Notes: a model not told the origin generated them from the letters alone. A stretch of 34,333 bases of DNA from Candidatus Uhrbacteria bacterium (GCA_016205995.1 JACQSJ010000013.1:1-34333); one strand, 5' to 3'. Positions 883-31,590 are shown, numbered from the stretch's first letter. A program made the numbers and translations.

Positions 883-2349
883 ATGAACGTCAAGACCCGT
901 TTCCCCCCATCACCAACAGGATTTCTCCACGTCGGCTCACTGCGCACGGCTCTGTACAACTATCTCTTTGCGAAGAAGCACGGAGGGACGTTTATTGTAC
1001 GCGTAGAGGACACGGATCGTGAACGACTTGTTGAAGGCGCGGTCGAGTCCTTGATTCGCACACTTAAAACAGTCGGCATCAGCTACGACGAAGGCCCCAT
1101 CCTCGTTGGCGACAAACTTTCAGAGAAGGGAGGCAACGGTCCCTATACACAATCGCAGCGCCTTCCTATCTATAAAGAGCACGCCCAAAAGCTCGTAGAG
1201 CAGGGGAGTGCGTACTACTGCTTTTGCTCAAAGGAGCGTCTCGAGGAATTACGCAATCAACAGCAGATCGCCAAACTTCAAACCAAGTACGATCGTCACT
1301 GCTTAAAGCTCGACGCACAGGAGATCTCTCGCCGGCTCGCAGCAGGGGAGTCACATGTGATCCGTCTTCAGATTCCCGATGGCGAAACAACATTTCAAGA
1401 CGAAATCCGCGGATCCATCACGATCAGCAATTCTGAAATCGACGATCAAGTCCTCATGAAGGCGGATGGATTCCCGACGTACCATCTTGCGGTCGTCGTT
1501 GACGACCACCTCATGGGGGTCACGCACATCATCCGCGGTGAGGAGTGGATCTCAAGTGTTCCCAAACACGTCATCTTGTACAAGGCGTTTAGATTCCCCA
1601 TGCCGTCGTTTGCCCACTTGCCGCTCATCTTGAATCCAGACAAGTCCAAGCTCTCCAAGCGCCAGGGCGACGTGGCCGTCGAGGACTACCTCGAGAAAGG
1701 CTACCTTCCAGAGGCATTGGTGAACTTTGTCGCCCTTCTTGGCTTTAATCCGACAGGGGACCGCGAGATCTACACGATCGACGAACTCATAGAAGCCTTT
1801 GACCTTACAAAAGTGAATAAGAGTGGAGCGGTGTTCGATCGCACAAAACTCGACTGGATGAATGGGCAGTACATTCGTTCCATCGATTCTAAGCGACTGT
1901 TTGAGCTTGCCCAGCCATGCTTTGGGGATGCATCGACCCTTCCAGACGAACAGAAGAAGAAAATACTCGGAGTCGAGAAAGAACGACTTGTCACGCTCAA
2001 GGAACTCGAGGAACGGGCGAAGATGTACTTGGCGCTTCCGGAGTATCCTGCAACAGATCTCGTGTGGAAAAAGGCAGACGCCCAGGATGCGACACTTCAT
2101 CTCACGAATCTCTTGAAGCTCGTCGAGTCAACAGAGCCCGCGGTGTTTGATCGTCGTGAGTTGATTGAAGAGGCCATCAAGAAGTATATTGGAGATAACG
2201 GATATCAGAATGGAAACGTACTCTGGCCGCTGAGAGTCGCGCTTTCAGGCCAAACACAATCGTCAGGGCCGTTTGATCTTCTCTGGGTGCTAGGCGCACA
2301 CGAGGGGATACAACGCATCACGATCGCTATCGATAAACTTACGTCATGA
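883..2349 (+). CDS. gltX: glutamate--tRNA ligase
   Basis: HIGH-type motif PSPTGFLHVGSLRTALYN and KMSKS-type KLSKRQG; length (488 aa) and layout fit class I GluRS. Confidence 0.95.
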   Translation: MNVKTRFPPSPTGFLHVGSLRTALYNYLFAKKHGGTFIVRVEDTDRERLVEGAVESLIRTLKTVGISYDEGPILVGDKLSEKGGNGPYTQSQRLPIYKEHAQKLVEQGSAYYCFCSKERLEELRNQQQIAKLQTKYDRHCLKLDAQEISRRLAAGESHVIRLQIPDGETTFQDEIRGSITISNSEIDDQVLMKADGFPTYHLAVVVDDHLMGVTHIIRGEEWISSVPKHVILYKAFRFPMPSFAHLPLILNPDKSKLSKRQGDVAVEDYLEKGYLPEALVNFVALLGFNPTGDREIYTIDELIEAFDLTKVNKSGAVFDRTKLDWMNGQYIRSIDSKRLFELAQPCFGDASTLPDEQKKKILGVEKERLVTLKELEERAKMYLALPEYPATDLVWKKADAQDATLHLTNLLKLVESTEPAVFDRRELIEEAIKKYIGDNGYQNGNVLWPLRVALSGQTQSSGPFDLLWVLGAHEGIQRITIAIDKLTS

Positions 2350-3542
2350 GACGATATCTCCTCTCAAGCTTGATATTGAGCACGCTCGTCCTACTTGGGT
2401 CGGGAGTGTATGCGTTTGCCCAGGAGCTGTCGACGGATCAAATCAACGCGCTCAACGATGAGATTGAACAGAAGCAGCAGTCAATCGATCAGCTCAACCG
2501 CCAAATTGATACCTACAAGGACAAAATAGAAGAGAAGCAGGCACAGGAAGCGACGTTGTACGGTGAGCTTGATCTCTTGGACAACAGGATCGCAAAGACA
2601 CAGCTTGATATTGAGGCCACGGAGGCGGAGATTGATTTAGTGAACGCCCAAATCGCGCTTATTGAGCAAGAAGTCCATGATCTTGAAACGCTCATGAACA
2701 AGGACTTAGAGTTGGTTGCTCAGGTGATTCAAAAAATCGAGGTGCAGGACAACACACTCCCACTTCAGCTCGTGTTTGGCACAGACTCGTTTTCAGAATT
2801 CTTTAACAACCTCGAACAGCTTGAGGCGGTGAGCTCGGATCTTAAGACGGCGGTCGACACGGCGCGACAGTCAAAGGCACAGCTTCTTGAAAAACACGAA
2901 GCACAGCAGGGGAAGAAGGTTCAATTGACAGGACTCAGCGAATCACTTGCACAAGAGGGACGACGCCTTGAGGCCTCTGTGGGGGCGAAGTCGTCTTTGT
3001 TGGCCGTAACGCAAGACTCCGAGGCTCAGTTCCAGGCGCTCCTTGAGGATCTCCGACAGGAACAGGCATACCTGAATCAACAGATTGCCTTGCTTCAAAA
3101 GGACATCGAAGGAAGACTTAACGCCACAGACGAACTCGGCGATTCCTCAGTCTTATCGTGGCCCGTTGACCCGACCATTCGGGGGATCTCGGCCTACTAT
3201 CACGACCCGTCGTATCCATTCCGTCATTTGTTTGAGCACTCGGGACTTGACCTGCCGGCTCCGACTGGAACACCGGTTCGGGTCGCTGCGCCCGGATACG
3301 TCGCCTGGACGCGGCAGGGGACACTCTACGGAAATTACATCATGGTCATTCACACAAACGGCCTAGCGACCCTCTATGCGCATCTTTCTCGAATCGATGT
3401 AAGCGCTGACCAATTTGTGGGACGTGGGGACCAAATTGGCGCCGTTGGTAGCACGGGGCTTTCAACGGGTCCGCATCTTCACTTTGAGGCTCGACTCAAT
3501 GGGATCCCGACGGACCCTCTTGATTACTTGATTGCGTATTAG
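2346..3542 (+). CDS. M23/LytM-family metallopeptidase with N-terminal signal/TM and long coiled coil (EnvC-like architecture, catalytic residues intact)
   Basis: ATGA overlap with the gltX stop; heptad-rich Q/E/L region; C-terminal HSGLDL and GSTGLSTGPHLHFE motifs. Confidence 0.9.
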   Translation: MRRYLLSSLILSTLVLLGSGVYAFAQELSTDQINALNDEIEQKQQSIDQLNRQIDTYKDKIEEKQAQEATLYGELDLLDNRIAKTQLDIEATEAEIDLVNAQIALIEQEVHDLETLMNKDLELVAQVIQKIEVQDNTLPLQLVFGTDSFSEFFNNLEQLEAVSSDLKTAVDTARQSKAQLLEKHEAQQGKKVQLTGLSESLAQEGRRLEASVGAKSSLLAVTQDSEAQFQALLEDLRQEQAYLNQQIALLQKDIEGRLNATDELGDSSVLSWPVDPTIRGISAYYHDPSYPFRHLFEHSGLDLPAPTGTPVRVAAPGYVAWTRQGTLYGNYIMVIHTNGLATLYAHLSRIDVSADQFVGRGDQIGAVGSTGLSTGPHLHFEARLNGIPTDPLDYLIAY

Positions 3543-18100: not shown

Positions 18101-18131
18101 TAGCATAGGGAGACGACTGAATCTCCGACAC
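15114..18131 (-). CDS. UvrD/PcrA-type SF1 helicase fused to a C-terminal PD-(D/E)xK Cas4/AddB-like Fe-S nuclease
   Basis: Helicase motifs: Walker A AGAGTGKT, DEFQD, VGDDDQSIYKFRGA, TVHAAKGLEF and YVAMTRA. Nuclease motifs: C-terminal DRIDRF...IIDYKTG plus four Cys (CPLQY ... CQYCDFADIC). The codon at 18131 is GTG; in-frame ATGs at 18101 and 18086 (MSEDLLAKLNQEQ) are plausible true starts. Confidence 0.9.
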   Translation of the reverse strand: MSEIQSSPYAMMSATMSEDLLAKLNQEQREAVTHVEGPLMIVAGAGTGKTTVVTHRIAWLIDQGHAKPEEILALTFTDKAAGEMEERVDRLLPYGYVDLQISTFHSFAEKLLRQYGAELGLSRDFRLMTELDAWLLSRQHFDRFALDYYRPLGNPTKYIRSLLTHFSRAKDVGIDPDEYLKFVEGTKADLDAAQADDAATSEIARLDELARAYATYQQILLENDALDFGDLMLYTLKLLRTRPTVRDQIRARFKFVLVDEFQDTNDAQYEIVKLIAEPRRNLTVVGDDDQSIYKFRGASLANILRFEADFPDTKRVVLTKNYRSAQEILDRAHAFIQHNNPNRLEAATQRQLSKKLEAAVTLPAQVEHIHALTATEEVARVVERIVGLKAQEGTDWSDFAILVRSNAGGMDFAAALERHKIPYQFLALSGLYTKPAVLDLMAYMRVIDNPFDSPSFYRLLASKIVGVGERSILELNQWAHRKGKSLFEACEQVGSIFQVPVDDQQAIRRLLEQLDTFQKAARTRKVGELFVMVAKDSGYLEHLNRLSEQKKLDSFSYLQQFYQRLKSFERRSDHPVLHNFLAEFAHERDAGEEGSLAIDLEAGPDVVRIMTVHAAKGLEFKHVFVVNLVAQRFPTNQKSDAIPLPEGLGSSPTNDKDAHLEEERRLFYVAMTRAKVGLYFTSAEDYGGARARKLSRFLHELGYESPEAPREIVELFDEEQGQPPASETVTFPIPKQFSFTQLAAFKTCPLQYKFAHVLKVPIMGKWTFSFGKTMHNTLQRFFTLWLEREGLRQASLFGSTTTSEQLPVSLDELVEAYHACWQDDWFMNDRQREEYRQQGLESIKGFYRKLDDRRPPTLRYAEVGAPTAEHVGADPLAVEQGFTMKFGDVVLKGQIDRIDRFEDGVEIIDYKTGSPKTELSKEDKEQLLLYQLAARDVLGLVPKRLTYHYLTDNSQVSFLGTDDQLLDLQESIVARVQAIRSSKFDPTPGFHCQYCDFADICEFRQ

Positions 18132-18146
18132 TCTCCCTCCGCGGTC

Positions 18147-18232
18147 TCCCCCCTGCCTGAGGGGGGATTAAGGGGGGAGGGAGCGCGGGGAGGTTGCCGG
18201 CGACTTCGTCCGAAGCGAACGGCAACCTCCCC
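18147..18232. other. G/C-run structured intergenic segment: hairpin 18147-18167, G-quadruplex-type motif 18161-18190, 13-bp hairpin 18187-18199/18220-18232
   Basis: TCCCCCC-TGCCTGA-GGGGGGA; G6-ATTAA-G6-A-G3-AGCGC-G4; GGGGAGGTTGCCG...CGGCAACCTCCCC. Confidence 0.6.
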
Positions 18233-18264
18233 TAACCCCTCCTTGGGAAGGAGGGGGATCGAAT
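18224..18264 (+). repeat. REP-like hairpin repeat, copy B (AACCTCCCCTAACCCCTCCTTGGGAAGGAGGGGGATCGAAT)
   Basis: Same flanks and stem as copies A and C; the loop is TTGGGAA instead of TTAAAAA. Confidence 0.75.
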
Positions 18265-18269
18265 AATGA

Positions 18270-18330: not shown

Positions 18331-19599
18331 ATGTCTGCTCTTGAGATTCCTGCCGACGCCGTCCTGGACGTCCGCATCCGACTCGGACGAGATCGCCTGA
18401 CCGCTATTTCCCCCTCGCGGGTTCAGGTCCTCATCGACACGCGTCCCCAGGCGCTGACGCGGCGACAGACCGTCCCCGTGTCCATCCGGCTCGTCGTGGA
18501 CGTTTCCGGCTCCATGGGGGACCCCGTCGATCATGACCAGGAGAGCAAGCTCGAGGTCGTCAAGCAGGCGATCCTCAGACTACTCGACGAGCTGACCGAT
18601 CACGACTCCGTGCTCCTTTCGGTGTTCAGCACCGACGGCCGACTGGTGGTCCCGCAGATCCACGCACATCGCGACTCGCGACAGCGGATCCGAAATCTGC
18701 TGAAGAAGCTCAAGCCCGAGCAGTCCACCAACATCTCCGCTGGTCTCGAGCTCGCCCTGCATCCGGTCGTCGATGGTGCCCTGCCTCGTGTGATCCTGTT
18801 CACGGACGGCAACTCCTCGTTCCCGAACGAGGACCACCCGCGCCTTGTCAGGCTTGCGGACGAGGCGCGCGCGAGCCAGATCCCGCTCTCGATCTACGGC
18901 ACGGGCTCGAACTACAACTGGAGTCTGCTGCACCAGGTCGCCATCCAAGCCGGCGGAGGGAGCTTCCTCAAGCACGTCATGAACCCTTCGACCCTCGAGG
19001 GGCACATGCTCGCCGAGCTGGCGTTCCTGCGTGGCACGGCCATCAACGACTTCCGGATCAAGGGCTCTGTCCCCGACGGAGTCAAGATCATCTCGGTCAC
19101 GTCGATGATGCCCCTCATCCGCAAGCTCAAGCACGACGGTCACGTCTTCCGCGACTCGACGGGCGCGCTTGATCTCCACCGCGGAGCCCAGTACCTCGTG
19201 GAGCTGGAGGTCGCCAACCCGCAGGTCGGCCTCCTCGCCAGGGTGCTGACCATGCGCTTCCGCGGCCGGCTCTACGAAACGGGGCAGCGCTTCGACCACA
19301 CGCTGGACGCGCCCGTCACGTTCGTGGAGAACCCCTCCGAGGCCTCTGCGCCCGACCCCGAGGTCAAGAAGGTCCAACTGATGGTCATGGCCAACGACAA
19401 GGCGAAGGAGGGCAAGTTCCAAGAAGCCTCTACCCTCTACTCCCGCGCCGGTGACCGCGACACGTCCCAGGCCATGTCGGTTCTGCACACGGCCTCGCTG
19501 GGGGCCGACGCAGACCTCGAGGGGCTGACCCGCACGGGGTCGACCTTGGCCGGTGGGTCCGTGACCCAACTCTTCACGGCCAACCCCAACAAGAGCTAG
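18331..19599 (+). CDS. von Willebrand factor A (vWA) domain protein with complete MIDAS, plus an unassigned C-terminal region of about 195 aa
   Basis: AGGAGG RBS 5 nt upstream of the ATG. MIDAS elements DVSGSMG (D57), QSTNISAG and ILFTDGNS. G/C-ending codons predominate, with Lys always AAG and Phe always TTC. Confidence 0.9.
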   Translation: MSALEIPADAVLDVRIRLGRDRLTAISPSRVQVLIDTRPQALTRRQTVPVSIRLVVDVSGSMGDPVDHDQESKLEVVKQAILRLLDELTDHDSVLLSVFSTDGRLVVPQIHAHRDSRQRIRNLLKKLKPEQSTNISAGLELALHPVVDGALPRVILFTDGNSSFPNEDHPRLVRLADEARASQIPLSIYGTGSNYNWSLLHQVAIQAGGGSFLKHVMNPSTLEGHMLAELAFLRGTAINDFRIKGSVPDGVKIISVTSMMPLIRKLKHDGHVFRDSTGALDLHRGAQYLVELEVANPQVGLLARVLTMRFRGRLYETGQRFDHTLDAPVTFVENPSEASAPDPEVKKVQLMVMANDKAKEGKFQEASTLYSRAGDRDTSQAMSVLHTASLGADADLEGLTRTGSTLAGGSVTQLFTANPNKS

Positions 19600-19607
19600 G
19601 AGGTACC

Positions 19608-20183
19608 ATGCCCACCTGTCCCGCCTGTTCGGCTTCGTGCGTGCATGGGTCGCTCGTGTGCCCGCGTTGTGGTGAGGATTTGGACGCGGCCGCAGTGGCC
19701 GAGAACGTGCCCGTTACCCGAGCCCTGATGGTGGTGGGAGTAGGCCCAGAACGGGTCTACACCGTTCCCAAGATCGACCTCCATCTGATCATGGTGGAGG
19801 AACGGGTCTTCCCCGAGCACGCCATCGTGGCCACCATGCCGATCCGGCGCCTGGAAGTACCGGTCCGCATCGGTCGCAACGACCTGAGCAAGAGCCCGCC
19901 GATCCTTCCGGAGCTCGACCTGGGCCAGATCCTGGCGGAACTACTGCCAGGCAAGCGGCCGGTCGTGTCGCGGCTCCACGCCGCACTTCAGCTCAAGGAC
20001 GGCCGACCCGTCATCAAGCACCTGGTTGCCTCCCAGAATTCGACCTGGATCCAGCGCGGAAAGAGGCTCTCGGCTGTGCCGATCAACGCGCAGCGCGAGC
20101 TCGAGCACCGAGACACGCTCATCCTGGGAGACCCGCTGGGCCGCTACGTCGCTCTGCGCGTGATCCTGAGCGATCCGCGCTGA
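19608..20183 (+). CDS. zinc-ribbon + FHA domain protein
   Basis: The AGGAGG RBS overlaps the vWA stop. N-terminal CPAC-x10-CPRC. FHA core RIGRND...VSRLHAALQLKDG...SQNSTWI...LILGDPLG. Confidence 0.9.
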   Translation: MPTCPACSASCVHGSLVCPRCGEDLDAAAVAENVPVTRALMVVGVGPERVYTVPKIDLHLIMVEERVFPEHAIVATMPIRRLEVPVRIGRNDLSKSPPILPELDLGQILAELLPGKRPVVSRLHAALQLKDGRPVIKHLVASQNSTWIQRGKRLSAVPINAQRELEHRDTLILGDPLGRYVALRVILSDPR

Positions 20184-20196
20184 AGCAAGCGCTACG

Positions 20197-20228
20197 ATCC
20201 CGACCCTCGCGGCCGGGATTTTCATTTT
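20197..20228 (+). terminator. intrinsic terminator of the vWA-FHA operon
   Basis: ATCCCG...CGGGAT stem followed by TTTTCATTTT. Confidence 0.55.
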
Positions 20229-20263
20229 CCTCAACCAGGTCGGACATTAAATGTCCGACCTGC
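20215..20263 (+). repeat. palindrome-bearing repeat, copy 1 (perfect 27-nt palindrome 20236-20262)
   Basis: GGGATTTTCATTTTCCTCAACCAGGTCGGACATTAAATGTCCGACCTGC is nearly identical to 31543-31590 and shares its core with 29673-29715. Confidence 0.9.
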
Positions 20264-20318: not shown

Positions 20319-20927
20319 TCAGTTGTCGAAGCGTGCCCCAGGGGCGTGTTCAGCGCCGAAGAGGTGTCCCCAGAGCTTGCGGCCTTGATTCTGCCAGAAT
20401 TCGATCCACTTCTGACGGCCGATGAAGTAGGTCCGCTTCCTGCCGTCGGGGTAGTCGACGTGGATGCGGCAGATCACCTTGTTGGTAGGGTCCACCGCCT
20501 TGATGCGCGGCTTGGCTGCCATCTGGAGCACGATCTGGTGCACCAGCGTGAGGCCGCAGCTCGCTGCCTTGCCGCACGGCACGTGGATCTCGGCGGAGAC
20601 GACGTGGATCTCCTTGAGCGCTTCCGCCTCGCGGATCTGTTGAAAGACGTACTCGTCGATCCCGCGACCCGGATAGAGCGGCGAGTCGGGTGCGACCACC
20701 ATGCACCCCCCGTGATGGGTGATGAGGTGGATGCGGGGCGTGACGCCAGCCTCGATCGCCACGCGGCGGTCGTGCTCGATGCGGTCGAGCATCTGGTCCC
20801 CGTCCGGGCATCGGATGACGATGACACCACGGGAGAGGTCGAGACCGTTCCCGTTCATGTCCTCGATGACACCGGCGCGACGAAGGGTTTCGATGACTTG
20901 GATGTCGAACGACGACAGCCGGCCCAT
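20319..20927 (-). CDS. hypothetical 202-aa protein with Cys/His motifs (IRCPDGD, THHGGC, HVPCGKAASCG)
   Basis: ATG 20927 is preceded by GGAGGATCC, with its own promoter and terminator. G/C-ending codons are strong in this frame. The ORF-track start at 20996 would run through the promoter. Confidence 0.75.
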   Translation of the reverse strand: MGRLSSFDIQVIETLRRAGVIEDMNGNGLDLSRGVIVIRCPDGDQMLDRIEHDRRVAIEAGVTPRIHLITHHGGCMVVAPDSPLYPGRGIDEYVFQQIREAEALKEIHVVSAEIHVPCGKAASCGLTLVHQIVLQMAAKPRIKAVDPTNKVICRIHVDYPDGRKRTYFIGRQKWIEFWQNQGRKLWGHLFGAEHAPGARFDN

Positions 20928-20967
20928 GGATCCTCCAGAGTTGTTCAGTTGAAACCAGAACGGCACT

Positions 20968-28368: not shown

Positions 28369-28614
28369 TTACTTCGGTTCGTTCATCAGGCGCTCGTAGG
28401 CGTTCTTGTACATCTTTGCCTTTCGGACAACCGCATAGGCGCTAAGCGCGAACGCGACAACGAGGAGGATAACCATGTAGCGAGGTTCTGTGCCGTAACG
28501 GCCGTCGAGCCACTTGCCAAGAAGGGCGGCCAGGACGGCGGGTATCGCAATGGTGCCGCTGAAGTCAGCAAAGATGCGTCCGGCGAGCCTGTAATACTTA
28601 GCGTCTTGTGCCAT
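28369..28614 (-). CDS. AtpZ/AtpI-like small membrane protein preceding atpB
   Basis: The start is set at ATG 28614 (MAQDAKYYRLAGR..), giving 81 aa with two TM helices. The longer ORF-track version would overlap the island-B gene and its terminator. Confidence 0.6.
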   Translation of the reverse strand: MAQDAKYYRLAGRIFADFSGTIAIPAVLAALLGKWLDGRYGTEPRYMVILLVVAFALSAYAVVRKAKMYKNAYERLMNEPK

Positions 28615-28636
28615 ACCTCTAAACAAAGGCGCCGCC

Positions 28637-28665
28637 AGTGTACCGGATTCAACGTCCAGGGTCAA
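28637..28665 (-). promoter_or_regulatory. putative promoter of the atp operon
   Basis: Minus-strand TTGACC (28665-28660), 17-nt spacer, TACACT (28642-28637), about 25 nt upstream of ATG 28614. Confidence 0.45.
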
Positions 28666-28690
28666 CAGAATCTTCAAAAATTGTCCCCAG

Positions 28691-28756
28691 AAAAAAGAAA
28701 ATCCCCACGCATGAAGCAATGGGGCGTCGATCCCTCCGCTCGCGAGCGGAGGGATC
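28691..28756 (-). terminator. tandem hairpins terminating the 283-aa gene
   Basis: A perfect 28-nt palindrome GATCCCTCCGCTCGCGAGCGGAGGGATC (28729-28756) overlaps the TGA stop. It is followed on the minus strand by CCCCA...TGGGG (28724-28703) and ATTTTCTTTTTTC. Confidence 0.6.
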
Positions 28757-29606
28757 AGTCCGTGTAGTTGTTGCCGGTCTTGTAGATGCCCTCGAAGTAC
28801 GATGGACGACGAAGGTCGACCCATCCCTCGAGGTCGCGGATCATCATGACCAGGTGCATGCCCGTGGCCTCTGCCATGATGTCGCTGGAGCGAGACAACT
28901 CGGTCACCTCCCGCTTGAGGGTGGTGATCGTATCTCCGTTTGTACTGCCAGCTCTCTGGTCGAGGAACGCCGCGATGACTCGATCACGCAGTTCCTGGTA
29001 GCGCGTCGTGGCCAGGATCGCCTGTCCCAGGAAGGAGAGCGGACTGGTCTGTGCCGGCCGCGTGAACAGCGGGATCATGGGACGAGGGGGCTCTGGAGGC
29101 CCACGATCTCGCCGCGCGCGACGGTCGTCCGGGTCATCGTCATCCTCATCATCCCCAGTATTGACGATGACACCGCCCCCTCCTCCCCCTCTGCGATCGC
29201 TACCGCCTGGCGGAGGGGCTCCACCCGCAAGGGCGTCGGGGTCGATCCCCTGTTCGGGCTCGGGCTCGTCGACAGCCGGCGTGGCCGGTGCGGCGGTCGA
29301 ACCAGCCGTGGAGGGCGAGGCTGTACTCGCCGGGGCAGCGCTGCTCGTCACCGTTACGGCGAGCGCACGGGCGAGCTTATCCCACCAGGAATGGCGGGGG
29401 TCGGTCGTGGAAGCCTTCTTGACCCAACCGGCTGAATCGCCGACGAAGTCCTGGAAGGTCTCCGCCAGTTCATCGAGCGTTGTAGCGTCGGCCTGCGAGA
29501 GGTCCGTGTCTCTTTTTCCTTTGAGGGCGTTGAATGCCCCCTCGAAGTCCGCGCCCGCAGGCGCGGTTTTTCCAAACAGTACCTGAATGGCGTTCACAAG
29601 AGTCAT
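28755..29606 (-). CDS. hypothetical 283-aa protein: helical N-domain, Ala/Pro/Ser/Thr linker, Gly6 and acidic run, C-terminal domain
   Basis: ATG 29606 is preceded by GGAGG (8-nt spacing) and a TTGACA-17-TAAAAG promoter. No recognisable domain. Confidence 0.7.
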   Translation of the reverse strand: MTLVNAIQVLFGKTAPAGADFEGAFNALKGKRDTDLSQADATTLDELAETFQDFVGDSAGWVKKASTTDPRHSWWDKLARALAVTVTSSAAPASTASPSTAGSTAAPATPAVDEPEPEQGIDPDALAGGAPPPGGSDRRGGGGGGVIVNTGDDEDDDDPDDRRARRDRGPPEPPRPMIPLFTRPAQTSPLSFLGQAILATTRYQELRDRVIAAFLDQRAGSTNGDTITTLKREVTELSRSSDIMAEATGMHLVMMIRDLEGWVDLRRPSYFEGIYKTGNNYTD

Positions 29607-29632
29607 GTTCTCTACCTCCAGAAGAACGACTA

Positions 29633-29661
29633 CTTTTACCACTCTAAACTTGCCCTGTCAA
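29633..29661 (-). promoter_or_regulatory. putative promoter of the 283-aa gene
   Basis: Minus-strand TTGACA (29661-29656), 17-nt spacer, TAAAAG (29638-29633). Confidence 0.45.
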
Positions 29662-29672
29662 TCACCTCTAAC

Positions 29673-29715
29673 GAATTTCCCTGCGCCCTGTCGGACATTT
29701 AATGTCCGACAGGGC
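29673..29715 (+). repeat. palindrome-bearing repeat, copy 2 (perfect 31-nt palindrome 29685-29715) between the divergent island-B promoters
   Basis: GAATTTCCCTGCGCCCTGTCGGACATTTAATGTCCGACAGGGC, in the same orientation as copies 1 and 3 and followed by GAAAAGAAT. Confidence 0.9.
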
Positions 29716-29776
29716 TGAAAAGAATTGATAAATGTATCGAAATTTGTCATTGACTGGCAACGGATGTAGGAGTCCT

Positions 29777-29805
29777 TTGACATTTGCCGATTTCCCTGCT
29801 AATCT
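29777..29805 (+). promoter_or_regulatory. putative promoter of the 540-aa gene
   Basis: TTGACA (29777-29782), 17-nt spacer, TAATCT (29800-29805). An 8-bp 5'-UTR hairpin (29848-29867) lies just before the GGAG RBS. Confidence 0.5.
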
Positions 29806-29882
29806 CCGACCCTGGCATTTCTTCCGCCAGTGTTCCGTACAACCCCCGTGCAAGGCCGACCTTGCACATTCCTGGAGAAGCC

Positions 29883-31505
29883 ATGAGTTCAGCCCCGAAC
29901 CTCCTTCCCATCCCGCTCTCGCGGACCGGCCGCACCCTGCTGCTGGCCCTCGACCTCGTCGAAGGCTTCATGTGGAAGATGCTCCCCTCCATCCGCAACG
30001 AGGACGACGGGAAGGGCGGCACCAAGCGCGTGCGCGTCTCCAAGCAGGACCGCATCGACTTCCTGAAGTCCCGCCTCGTCATGAGCGCGGAGAACGAGCA
30101 GGTCCCCCACATGGCCGGCGTCGACTGGCGCGCGGACGTGCCCAAGTACGCCACCGAGGTCCTGATCCCCGCGATCAAGGACGGGCAGTACCAGTACGAC
30201 GGCGACGGCAACGTCGCTCTCGCTCCCGAGAAGCGCTGGCCCTACGCGGTCCGCGGCCAGACCAAGCTCCCGGACGGTAATGCCATCACGGTGCGCCCGC
30301 TCGTGCTCTGCGATGGCAAGGGCTTCCTCCTCCCCTACGTCAAGCCCCGTCAGCAGCAGGGCGAGGTCGTCTACGACGGCGTCGACGGCATGATCAGCTT
30401 CCTCTTCCGCGACTTCAACCCGTGGACCTGGGAGGACATCCTCGACGGTGACAAGCCCTCCTTCCGCGCCGTTCCGGCCGCGCTCGCGCGCCCCGAGACC
30501 GTGGCGCGCTGGAACGAGCTGGTCAAGCGCCGCGGCGAGCAGGACAAGTCCTACCCGGTCGCCTCCGAGCTCGTGACGCCCATCGCGCACAACCAGTTCG
30601 GCCGCCGCGTCCTCAAGTACCGCCCGCAGGGACACCCCCTGGTCCGCGACGGGATGCTGGGAATCCTCAAGCCCCCCCGCGACCGCGAGGAGGCCGGTGC
30701 GATCAACGTTCGCAAGGACGTGAAGCGGTGGACCCTGGGCGACCTGGTCGGCAAGACACTCGCGCTGGGCAAGGGCCTCAAGCTCATCCAGCCCGAGAAG
30801 AGCGGGCGCTTCGAGCCCCACAAGCTCGCCATCAACGAGATGTGGAGCTGGATCGATGTCGAGCAGGTCGACGGGATCTGGGGTGCGGGCACCCGCGTGG
30901 ACCAGCACGTCATCAAGGCGGAGCAGGACCCGATCGACGCCCTCGCGGCGCTCGGCCTCACGCTCTACTCCTGCAGCCCCTTCGAGGTGAAGGGAATCGT
31001 GACCCGACTCCTGACCGCCCCGATCACCGACGATCACCCGATCATCGTGAACCTGCGCAGCCGCGGGGACCTCGAGGTCGACGCCGACGAGGATCTCGCC
31101 CGGCGTCAGATGCGCGCGATCGAGACGATCCTCGTGGACGGCGCCCGCGGCACCATCCGCGAAGCCCGGCGGCGGCTCGAGCACGAGCTCGGCGGCGCCG
31201 GCAGCCAGAACCCGGGCATCAACCTGGAGCAGGCGCTGGGTGCCGAACCCACGCCGGAGCTCCTCCGGCAGGTCCACGACAACCCGACCGGGGACAACCT
31301 CCTCGTGATCGGGATGCTCACCAGCAAGACGGCCTCCGACCTCGGCCTGACCGAGTGGGACCCCAAGTGCTGGGTCCTCGTCGAGGCCTTCAAGACCCTG
31401 CTCCTCGCCCTGGCCGCCTCGGCCGGGATCGAGATGGCGCCCCCGCCGGCGCCGCCCGAGGCTCCCGCGGTCACCGAGGACCAGCCGCCCGCCACCAACC
31501 CCTGA
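29883..31505 (+). CDS. hypothetical 540-aa protein, no recognisable domain
   Basis: ATG 29883 has GGAG 6 nt upstream. The ORF-track start at 29784 lies inside the promoter. Extreme G/C-ending codon bias (Lys AAG, Phe TTC). Pro/Ala-rich C-terminal tail. Confidence 0.8.
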   Translation: MSSAPNLLPIPLSRTGRTLLLALDLVEGFMWKMLPSIRNEDDGKGGTKRVRVSKQDRIDFLKSRLVMSAENEQVPHMAGVDWRADVPKYATEVLIPAIKDGQYQYDGDGNVALAPEKRWPYAVRGQTKLPDGNAITVRPLVLCDGKGFLLPYVKPRQQQGEVVYDGVDGMISFLFRDFNPWTWEDILDGDKPSFRAVPAALARPETVARWNELVKRRGEQDKSYPVASELVTPIAHNQFGRRVLKYRPQGHPLVRDGMLGILKPPRDREEAGAINVRKDVKRWTLGDLVGKTLALGKGLKLIQPEKSGRFEPHKLAINEMWSWIDVEQVDGIWGAGTRVDQHVIKAEQDPIDALAALGLTLYSCSPFEVKGIVTRLLTAPITDDHPIIVNLRSRGDLEVDADEDLARRQMRAIETILVDGARGTIREARRRLEHELGGAGSQNPGINLEQALGAEPTPELLRQVHDNPTGDNLLVIGMLTSKTASDLGLTEWDPKCWVLVEAFKTLLLALAASAGIEMAPPPAPPEAPAVTEDQPPATNP

Positions 31506-31521
31506 GCCACGCGCTCAACGC

Positions 31522-31556
31522 CCCCGACATCGAAAGATCGTCGGGGTTTTCATTTT
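31522..31556 (+). terminator. intrinsic terminator of the 540-aa gene
   Basis: CCCCGAC-ATCGAAAGATC-GTCGGGG followed by TTTTCATTTT. Confidence 0.7.
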
Positions 31557-31590
31557 CCCTGCCAGGTCGGACATTTAATGTCCGACCTGC
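31543..31590 (+). repeat. palindrome-bearing repeat, copy 3 (perfect 27-nt palindrome 31563-31589)
   Basis: GGGGTTTTCATTTTCCCTGCCAGGTCGGACATTTAATGTCCGACCTGC. Confidence 0.9.

Follow-up and report, generated by a model that had tools for sequence, protein, structure and literature searches.

Bacteria of the candidate phyla radiation (CPR) presumably live attached to other cells, and their surface and contact proteins are largely unknown. In the surface-layer (S-layer) genes slpA of Lactobacillus and sapA of Campylobacter fetus and in the flagellin gene fliC, a strong promoter, a structured 5' untranslated region (UTR) and very strong codon bias go together with a conserved and a hypervariable module, divergent alleles are recombined at a fixed locus, and catalytic residues are lacking. 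Genomic islands, for their part, are marked by a sharp-edged compositional anomaly and ORFan content. Here we analyzed a stretch of 34,333 nucleotides from Candidatus Uhrbacteria bacterium (GCA_016205995.1, JACQSJ010000013.1:1-34333; hereafter the window), in which two divergently transcribed genes, termed SMALL and BIG, lie between the atp operon and tatD with a perfect palindrome between them. The original prediction had taken this GC-rich pair for a horizontally acquired, autonomously regulated module inserted just upstream of the atp promoter. The pair does share the compositional anomaly and ORFan content of genomic islands, but it differs from them in its clade-wide synteny, its lack of mobility genes and att sites, and a stable, gene-specific bias in G+C at third codon positions (GC3). 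It is an ancestral, fixed-position, lineage-specific locus of the Candidatus Uhrbacteria clade (CPR/Patescibacteria), and was not recently inserted.

Both predicted open reading frames (ORFs) are present in the ORF list and in the sequence. Each gene has its own promoter, ribosome-binding site (RBS) and terminator, as had been claimed, and BIG and SMALL form a self-contained divergent two-gene module:

28755-29606, minus strand: SMALL gene, an ORF of 283 aa.
29883-31505, plus strand: BIG gene, an ORF of 540 aa.

In all 12 related loci fetched (L001-L011 and L135; loci and contigs are given such numbers throughout), drawn from 10 or more independent assemblies of Candidatus Uhrbacteria at NCBI and ENA, the order atpZ-SMALL-BIG-tatD is retained with unchanged orientations, and none of them, in what was not an exhaustive survey of genomes, has an empty atpZ-tatD site. 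In the distant L137 and L138, a divergent gene of 240-265 aa lies upstream of BIG, with tatD alongside. SMALL and BIG thus occur together in every locus examined. As the gene order is identical in independent assemblies from at least 10 samples, an assembly chimera, a possibility raised along with the original prediction, is excluded. Neither an integrase, a transposase nor a tRNA was found near the pair in the ORF list and Pfam scans of the window; flanking direct repeats or att-like repeats were not found at the locus; and no relatives were detected in phages and plasmids (tblastn) or among IMG/VR viruses (two scans). The conserved slot, the missing integrase, tRNA and repeats, and the negative phage, plasmid and IMG/VR searches together rule out a recent insertion. 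Database relatives are few, about 10-12 for each protein, and both of those carrying a source name are metagenome-assembled genomes of Candidatus Uhrbacteria. After a full-database profile search the BIG family comprises 35 clusters at 50% identity, all of 500-690 aa; a protein search with the broad BIG alignment returned only 10 already-known proteins.

A recent foreign two-gene island from a high-GC donor, inserted upstream of the atp promoter, would account for the sharp edges of the G+C jump (68-72% against 52-56% in the flanks) and for the codon usage of BIG, which is like that of high-GC bacteria; a second GC-rich segment of the window, Island A, is moreover partly missing from the relative L008. 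This origin is nevertheless highly improbable, given that slot and orientation are constant across all related assemblies and that a GC3 of 0.81-0.96 is kept in 8 of 9 BIG orthologues, some only 27-39% identical, although synonymous divergence (dS) in the flanks is saturated, so that the foreign-looking composition is not ameliorating. Furthermore, GC3 of BIG tracks the host background (0.81 against 0.41 in the flanks at L137, and 0.53 against 0.29 at L138), GC3 of SMALL lies near the host level, and the signs of mobility and the mobile relatives sought above are lacking. The terms "horizontally acquired" and "inserted" therefore have to be given up, and nothing found points to a system in the defense or mobile-element sense.

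What remains of the island is its composition. G+C is 0.68-0.73 across the pair against 0.51-0.58 in the flanks, in line with the original prediction. The codon-usage difference that it also claimed is large for BIG and only small for SMALL, as seen from G+C at the first, second and third codon positions (GC1, GC2, GC3) and the effective number of codons (ENC):

BIG: GC1 0.70, GC2 0.44, GC3 0.95, ENC 29.
SMALL: GC2 0.55, GC3 0.72, ENC 45.
Neighboring genes: GC2 0.33-0.48, GC3 0.56-0.74, ENC 44-58.

BIG uses the codons ATC, AAG, CAG, TAC and TTC at a fraction of 1.00 each, CGC at 0.75 and GGC at 0.62. In the same 8 of 9 orthologues ENC is 29-39, and the flanking genes there have a GC3 of 0.39-0.66. 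SMALL has a GC3 of 0.55-0.75 and a GC2 of 0.49-0.56 across loci, and its high GC2 is due to a linker rich in Ala, Pro, Gly, Arg and Asp. These data show that the GC excess has two unrelated causes: a synonymous bias toward C/G-ending codons in BIG, and the amino-acid composition of the disordered linker in SMALL. A GC-rich "island" need not mean foreign DNA.

In the flanking genes, dS is 1.2-3.2 (saturated) and nonsynonymous divergence (dN) 0.04-0.12; in BIG, dS is pinned at 0.4-0.6 whatever the amino-acid divergence, and dN is 0.11-0.40. Such a low dS despite saturated flanks indicates that the bias is actively maintained in each lineage, and is not a fading foreign signature. For the same reason, dN/dS was rejected as a test of positive selection: dS of BIG is held to about 0.4-0.6 by the codon bias, and the flanks are saturated. 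The high GC3 of BIG might instead come from GC-biased gene conversion at a recombination hotspot, or from another force at the DNA level, rather than from selection linked to expression. The locus is indeed mosaic and recombining, a 225-aa ORF elsewhere in the window and its 37%-identical syntenic homologues at L001 and L006 also have a GC3 of 0.75-0.85, and typical highly expressed genes are without codon bias. Yet SMALL, only 277 bp away and at least as mosaic, stays near the host GC3, so the force is specific to BIG, which argues against a hotspot or biased gene conversion; and the shift, confined to one gene and amounting to about 1-2.3 logit units, is very large, exceeding the effects of biased gene conversion reported in bacteria. 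We regard this explanation as quite unlikely. The evidence favors selection tied to the mRNA of BIG itself or to its translation.

The two proteins have a modular build. BIG starts with a beta-rich, hypervariable N-terminal part of ~430 aa that falls into allele classes, followed by a conserved helical C-terminal module (C-module) of ~90 aa and a Pro-rich tail; its AlphaFold2 model, with a predicted local distance difference test score (pLDDT) of 73 and a predicted template modeling score (pTM) of 0.51, shows a helix at the N-terminus, beta-rich domains, and a helical domain at the C-terminus. In the L137 homologue (692 aa; 1334-3412) an extra copy of the C-module stands at the N-terminus (31% identity, E = 1e-14), and the module is therefore an independent, movable domain. 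Alignment of 31 family members revealed that the near-invariant columns hold only Pro, Gly and Leu besides the start Met, which suggests that BIG has a structural or binding rather than an enzymatic role. The homologues P0009 and L135 carry an additional ~45 aa at the C-terminus, IVWHE..L...LY..AK....G(I/V)TS..(T/D)K..L(V/I).AL..VC; a HeH/Rho_N-like domain was considered for this extension and dropped, being a motif resemblance only, with no Pfam support. A C-terminal transmembrane anchor in BIG was likewise rejected, as the hydrophobic stretch spans only ~12 residues with charges on both sides. An antisense ORF of 462 aa was not accepted as an overlapping gene either, since a gene with a GC3 of 0.95 is expected to cast such a shadow ORF. 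At L008, L009 and L011 (8088-9737) the public annotation is such a full-length antisense shadow ORF (549 aa) and not the BIG orthologue, the true one being identical to P0003 at 547 of 548 positions. This strand error in three public assemblies leaves the family under-represented, and thus under-counted, in protein databases.

SMALL consists of a helical N-domain (1-87), a disordered linker (about 85-185) and a helical C-domain (186-283). The two folded-looking ends joined by a linker, as originally described, are thus reproduced in the AlphaFold2 model (overall pLDDT 68, C-domain >90, linker <50), and the GGGGGG run, the DDEDDDDPDD run and the Ala/Pro/Ser/Thr linker are present. The linker, ~100 aa of Ala, Pro, Gly, acidic and basic residues, carries the conserved motif EPEQGIDPDALAGGAPPP; the linker motif of SMALL is EPEQGIDPDALAGG, and its C-terminal motif WFQANYxTG.

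Comparison of the aligned loci shows both proteins to be mosaics of a conserved and a hypervariable module, with deeply divergent allele classes. Overall identity is about 35-83% for BIG and 25-74% for SMALL, with different groupings:

Concatenated flanking proteins, six loci: 87-92% identity, star-like.
Flanking proteins, L135 against the six: about 80%, outgroup.
BIG within the window, L001 and L002: 80-83%.
BIG within L003 and L007: 79%.
BIG, L006 against all others: 34-39%.
BIG N-part, L006 against others: 26-29%.
BIG C-module, L006 against others: 61-75%.
Window against L001: BIG N-part 89%, C-module 61%.
Window against L007: BIG N-part 56%, C-module 72%.
SMALL, L002 against L003: 74%.
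SMALL, L001 against closer loci: 41-47%.
SMALL N-domain among the window, L002, L003 and L007: 75-81%.
SMALL N-domain, seven loci compared: 52-81% in 5 of 7, only 27-42% in L006 and L135.
SMALL C-domain, window against others: 21-39%.

The allele classes of BIG do not track the flanks, those of L006 being as close to the others as any. Nor does the grouping of SMALL match that of BIG: between the window and L001, the SMALL C-domain is 26% identical while the BIG N-part is 89% identical. Within BIG, the C-module does not follow the classes of the N-part, and variation is concentrated in the N-terminal ~430 aa. Along the locus the layout runs variable, conserved, conserved promoters, variable, conserved. 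The conserved modules, the SMALL N-domain and the BIG C-module, border conserved regulatory DNA; the hypervariable ones are the SMALL C-domain and the N-terminal ~430 aa of BIG. Allele histories that clash with the flanks and with each other are best explained by allele replacement through recombination within and between both genes.

The regulatory DNA comprises the following elements, SD being the Shine-Dalgarno sequence:

29777-29805, plus strand: BIG promoter, TTGACA-17 nt-extended -10 TGC-TAATCT (read from sequence and conservation; TGCTAATCT).
29777-29782, plus strand: BIG -35 box, TTGACA.
29758-29779, no strand assigned: candidate operator, inverted repeat CAACGGA-N8-TCC(G/T)TTG, overlapping the BIG -35 box.
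29812-29882, plus strand: structured 5' leader of BIG (folding, conservation, covariance model).
29812-29830, plus strand: leader hairpin 1, CTGGC...GCCAG, a few nt past the expected transcription start.
29831-29845, plus strand: single-stranded invariant stretch of the leader, UGUUCCGUACAACCC.
29848-29867, plus strand: leader hairpin 2, followed by the SD GGAG.
5' of 29883, plus strand: BIG RBS/SD, GGAG (read from sequence).
31522-31558, plus strand: BIG intrinsic terminator, a hairpin and then TTTTCATTTTCC (folding, -18.7 kcal/mol).
29633-29661, minus strand: SMALL promoter, TTGACA-17 nt-TGG-TAAAAG (read from sequence; TGGTAAAAG).
Minus strand: SMALL RBS, GGAGG (read from sequence).
28691-28757, minus strand: SMALL 3' end signals (folding, -38.5 kcal/mol, z = -3.5).

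Both promoters are of the type TTGACA-17 nt-TGn-TAxxxx, the -35 box of SMALL being the reverse complement of 29656-29661. A simple promoter consensus scan listed neither, because their -10 boxes match at only 3-4 of 6 positions. Conservation across orthologues supports these weak -10 promoters: the BIG promoter is nearly invariant across 6 orthologous loci; the segment from the BIG -35 box to 45 nt into the leader is 82-95% identical among five closer loci, where flanking dS is saturated; and the SMALL promoter element TGTCAATCA is conserved as well. The CAACGGA-N8-TCCGTTG repeat is perfect in L007 and L003 (in L003 with another 8-nt spacer); in the window it is mismatched at one position. At the 3' ends, the BIG terminator hairpin (31522-31546) is a 10-bp bulged stem with a GAAA loop, and BIG orthologues carry equivalent terminators; SMALL ends in a 28-nt perfect palindrome over its stop codon (28729-28756), with a second hairpin and the T-tract AUUUUCUUUUUUC at 28691-28724.

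The BIG leader matches its covariance model solely upstream of BIG orthologues. Hairpin 1 is recognizable even in the distant L135 and L138; in hairpin 2, five sequences reveal one pair in which both partners changed and pairing was kept, together with several G-U wobble changes. On the same five sequences, RNAalifold proposes that UUCCG might pair with the SD (C/U)GGAG, which would give a hypothetical SD-sequestering structure. Such leaders, and 5' stabilizer hairpins, are known from Escherichia coli ompA, Bacillus subtilis aprE, and ermC. BIG likewise has a hairpin near its predicted transcript start, and shares with them a conserved leader and a possible anti-SD pairing; it differs from them in having no Rfam family match, a start that is predicted and a covariation that is thin at five sequences. 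A sigma-54 reading of CTGGCA-N-GCCAG was rejected, the GG-to-GC spacing being 8 nt where 10 nt is required. A 14-nt near-repeat, CCGCCAGTGTACCG / CCGCCAGTGTTCCG, occurs at 28632-28645 and 29824-29837, both on the plus strand; this likeness of the atp promoter region to the BIG leader was dropped as a meaningful link and is probably due to chance.

Between the two -35 boxes lies the perfect 31-nt palindrome of the original prediction, which presented it as a site shared by the two genes. Its position between the divergent promoters is confirmed; its role as a private operator is weakened, as the other copies follow terminators and the palindrome also occurs in unrelated metagenome contigs. The core 21-mer GTCGGACATTwAATGTCCGAC has 3 exact copies in the window (20239, 29690 and 31566), all intergenic, against a chance expectation of 0.01:

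20199-20262, no strand assigned: composite with copy 1, made of terminator hairpin, ATTTTCATTTTCC, TCAACCAGG and palindrome, behind the vWA/FHA operon of Island A.
29685-29715, no strand assigned: copy 2, perfect over 31 nt (15-nt arms, 1-nt center; repeat scan).
31563-31589, no strand assigned: copy 3, 27 nt, between the convergent BIG and tatD terminators.

As a single strand, copy 2 folds at -27.8 kcal/mol (z = -9). Copies 1 and 3 and one at L014 share a composite of ~45 nt, consisting of terminator hairpin, TTTTCATTTTC(C/T)TCAACCAGG and palindrome, and all three composite units stand at a gene 3' end between convergent genes; the flank of copy 2 is likewise T-rich. The arm extensions differ and yet stay complementary (CAG/CTG against GCCCT/AGGGC), which favors a hairpin-forming element over a fixed protein-recognition sequence. 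The exact palindrome is absent from the orthologous intergenic regions, though the promoters are conserved there; L003 and L007 have degenerate or different palindromes at that position. It was not found in species-representative genomes either, and related copies occur in 3 metagenome contigs. The 16-mer ATGTCCGATCGGACAT proved too unspecific as a query, with at least 120 loci in unrelated phyla. Rfam gave an L31-leader at 19 bits, below the gathering score of 33, and an integron attC reading was rejected for want of a GTTRRRY core.

Given these features, we infer that the 31-nt palindrome is a copy of a dispersed terminator-T-tract-palindrome element similar to the repetitive extragenic palindromes (REP) and bacterial interspersed mosaic elements (BIME) of proteobacteria. 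The hallmark of REP, a short palindrome at several extragenic sites of one genome, is seen here with 3 copies in 34 kb. Like REP/BIME, the element has perfect 21-31-nt palindromes whose arm extensions covary, is extragenic and present in several copies, mostly between convergent genes just past terminators, and forms clusters (L006 and L007). It differs from them in its unrelated sequence, its CPR host and its fusion to the conserved T-tract motif TTTTCATTTTCYTCAACCAGG; no RAYT transposase was identified within the 34 kb of the source genome covered here. The palindrome might instead be the operator of a dimeric regulator that controls GC3-rich genes together as a regulon. Every scorable neighbor gene is GC3-rich (at the three window copies, L012 and L014, L013 being a duplicate of L012), one copy sits between the divergent -35 boxes, the L012 copy lies immediately upstream of an RBS, and L003 and L007 have other palindromes at the same intergenic position. 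However, the L014 copy and all but one of the three in the window follow intrinsic terminators between convergent genes, where there is nothing for an operator to control; the differing but complementary arm extensions point to selection for a hairpin; and the exact sequence is absent from orthologous loci that keep the promoters. A regulon operator is thus unlikely, and the CAACGGA inverted repeat at the BIG -35 box makes a better candidate for an operator than the REP-like palindrome.

Related palindromes have their own settings elsewhere. Between BIG and tatD, L006 (11836-11969) and L007 (8473-8608) contain a BIME-like palindrome cluster, with the 36-nt perfect palindrome ACGATCAATTATGTCCGATCGGACATAATTGATCGT and two more; the half-site TCGGACAT is that of the window, in swapped order. 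At L012 (2004-2542; also L013), an unrelated Patescibacteria-like contig, the exact palindrome stands just upstream of the RBS of a gene for a 167-aa signal-peptide protein, whose GC3 is 0.75 against 0.49-0.56 in its neighbors. In the window, Island A (18331-20183, plus strand) is an operon for a vWA protein (422 aa) and a zinc-ribbon/FHA protein (191 aa) with a GC3 of 0.81-0.86; it has a TTGACA promoter and a BIG-like 5' hairpin leader, and ends in a terminator-TTTTCATTTTCC-palindrome unit. Unlike the pair, Island A may be truly variable, as it is seemingly missing at the equivalent position of L008. A self-complementary stretch very rich in G/C runs, ...CTCCCTCCGCGGTCTCCCCCCTGCCTGAGGGGGGATTAAGGGGGGAGGGAGCGCGGGGAGGTTGCCGGCG...CGGCAACCTCCCCTAACCCCTCCTTGGGAAGGAGGGGG, is situated at about 18115-18265, with the start of the UvrD-like gene on one side and the vWA promoter on the other. 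The 225-aa ORF mentioned above is an ORFan of 203-225 aa without a known domain (window 20319-20930, minus strand; GC3 0.85) beside the atp operon; its homologues, 37% identical, adjoin atpC at L001 (1199-1936) and L006 (399-1139) with a GC3 of 0.75-0.76, which makes it a second fast-evolving, position-conserved, GC3-rich ORFan near that operon.

The rest of the window is an ordinary CPR chromosome, with gltX, alr, lysS, PBP2, mreBC, a UvrD/PD-(D/E)XK helicase, the atp operon, tatD, cvpA and metG. Directly downstream of the SMALL terminator stands the promoter of the atp operon:

28637-28665, minus strand: atp operon promoter, TTGACC-17 nt-TACACT (promoter scan; kept in orthologous loci).

The mechanically called atpZ ORF (28369-28824, minus strand, 151 aa) overlaps the SMALL 3' end; the real atpZ encodes 81 aa, with its ATG at 28614 (MAQDAKYY...), downstream of this promoter.

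That neither protein belongs to a recognized family, in keeping with the ORFan label of the original prediction, agrees with every search made. Neither SMALL nor BIG has a significant match in Pfam, NCBIfam, PHROGs or PADLOC; 31 BIG relatives scanned against Pfam and PHROGs and 13 SMALL-family members scanned against Pfam yielded no domain; the isolated domains, scanned separately, gave no match; and PDB sequence profiles returned only low-complexity noise. Among the defense-system hidden Markov models of PADLOC-DB v2, the sole match was SP_VI (E = 0.055, 30 residues of SMALL). Foldseek was also negative, the best E being 0.28 for the BIG model against PDB and BFVD and 4.6 for the SMALL model against PDB. 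A literature search on the pair found nothing relevant. Signal peptides are lacking in both proteins: their N-termini do not look like signal sequences, and the C-terminus of BIG is a hydrophilic Pro-rich tail. For the 540-aa protein, the lack of a signal peptide, a transmembrane helix and a nameable catalytic motif is thus upheld. No S-layer anchoring or lattice domain (SLH, CWB2 etc.) occurs in any family member (Pfam, NCBIfam).

Taken as a whole, the data are probably best explained by an ancestral pair in which BIG is an abundant structural or binding protein, SMALL an adaptor, and the palindrome a REP-like element. At the level of function we put forward, tentatively and with less than even confidence, that BIG is abundant and serves in structure or interactions rather than as an enzyme, with a variable N-part and an assembly or anchoring C-module, and that SMALL is an adaptor with a disordered linker. 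BIG is predicted to be made very abundantly because of its perfect -35 box, extended -10, 5' hairpin and conserved leader, strong SD and terminator, and ENC of 29. Its variable N-part would face a changing partner, for example a host cell, a phage or a competitor, and its conserved C-module would serve assembly or anchoring. SMALL may act as an adaptor or scaffold, its N-domain or linker motif contacting a conserved partner and its C-domain a variable one.

Several points weigh against this proposal. The high expression of BIG is a prediction from signs in the DNA. Genes that are usually well expressed (atpA/D/E, AhpC, MreB) are almost without codon bias in these genomes, so that translational selection strong enough to bring ENC down to 29 would be out of the ordinary in a CPR bacterium. 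A GC3 of 0.81-0.86 is also found in the Island A genes (vWA, FHA and the 225-aa ORF), which show no sign of abundance; a class of fast-evolving, lineage-specific, GC3-rich genes may exist. Diversifying selection is presumed, since the codon bias distorts the dS on which a formal test would rest. BIG fails every testable feature of an S-layer or surface protein (export signal, known domain). Neither BIG nor SMALL has a convincing transmembrane helix, the highest 19-residue Kyte-Doolittle score, 1.81, falling on an amphipathic charged helix, and a surface role would need non-classical export. Finally, the structure models are moderate, built from alignments of 10-13 sequences, and the missing fold match is therefore weak evidence of a new fold.

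A more specific version would make the pair a hitherto unrecognized, CPR-specific cell-envelope or host-contact apparatus with new folds, BIG being the Uhrbacteria surface-lattice or adhesion protein; we rate this version as unlikely. BIG would then be produced in great quantity and leave the cell without a classical signal peptide, recombination under diversifying selection would swap its N-terminal 430 aa between lineages, and SMALL, with its disordered linker, would assist as an adaptor in the export or assembly of BIG. Alternatively, hypervariability could reflect an intracellular arms race, the pair being a conflict system, either directed against phages or made up of a polymorphic toxin and the protein that confers immunity to it. 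In both proteins hypervariable modules with conserved "handles" are replaced as alleles by recombination, SMALL combines a conserved N-domain with a variable C-domain as polymorphic toxins do, and the same 3' element is found on a vWA/FHA module, a type that often accompanies conflict systems. Nevertheless, PADLOC gave no match beyond the short one above, all family members lack Pfam, NCBIfam and PHROG domains, BIG and its relatives have no polar or catalytic residue in common, and the pair is core and position-fixed rather than patchy. Divergent transcription instead of an operon, and a codon bias so extreme as to be untypical of defense genes, further reduce the chances of a conflict system, which we consider rather unlikely.

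In summary, the two genes are real and still unexplained. The pair, presumed to be an abundant structural or binding protein with its adaptor, offers CPR cell biology a good lead and a concrete candidate for surface and contact functions, as it is found in every member examined, diversifies fast, is probably highly expressed and has no relatives in database families. It is also an unusual case of codon bias, with a GC3 of ~0.95 in BIG against ~0.6 elsewhere in the genome, held across saturated divergence. The architecture of SMALL recalls PopZ-like hub or scaffold proteins, with helical ends and a Pro-rich, acidic disordered middle, here a ~100-aa Pro/Ala/acidic linker with a short conserved motif; this likeness is one of architecture, and neither sequence nor fold is similar to PopZ. 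For BIG, the closest functional analogy is with the S-layer genes slpA and sapA and flagellin fliC. Unlike their products, BIG lacks an N-terminal signal peptide, an SLH, CWB2 or flagellin domain and any matching fold, and it is paired with a divergent gene for a disordered-linker protein. Yet the strong promoter, the structured 5' UTR, the very strong codon bias, the joining of a conserved to a hypervariable module, the recombination of divergent alleles at a fixed locus and the lack of catalytic residues are all features that BIG shares with slpA, sapA and fliC.

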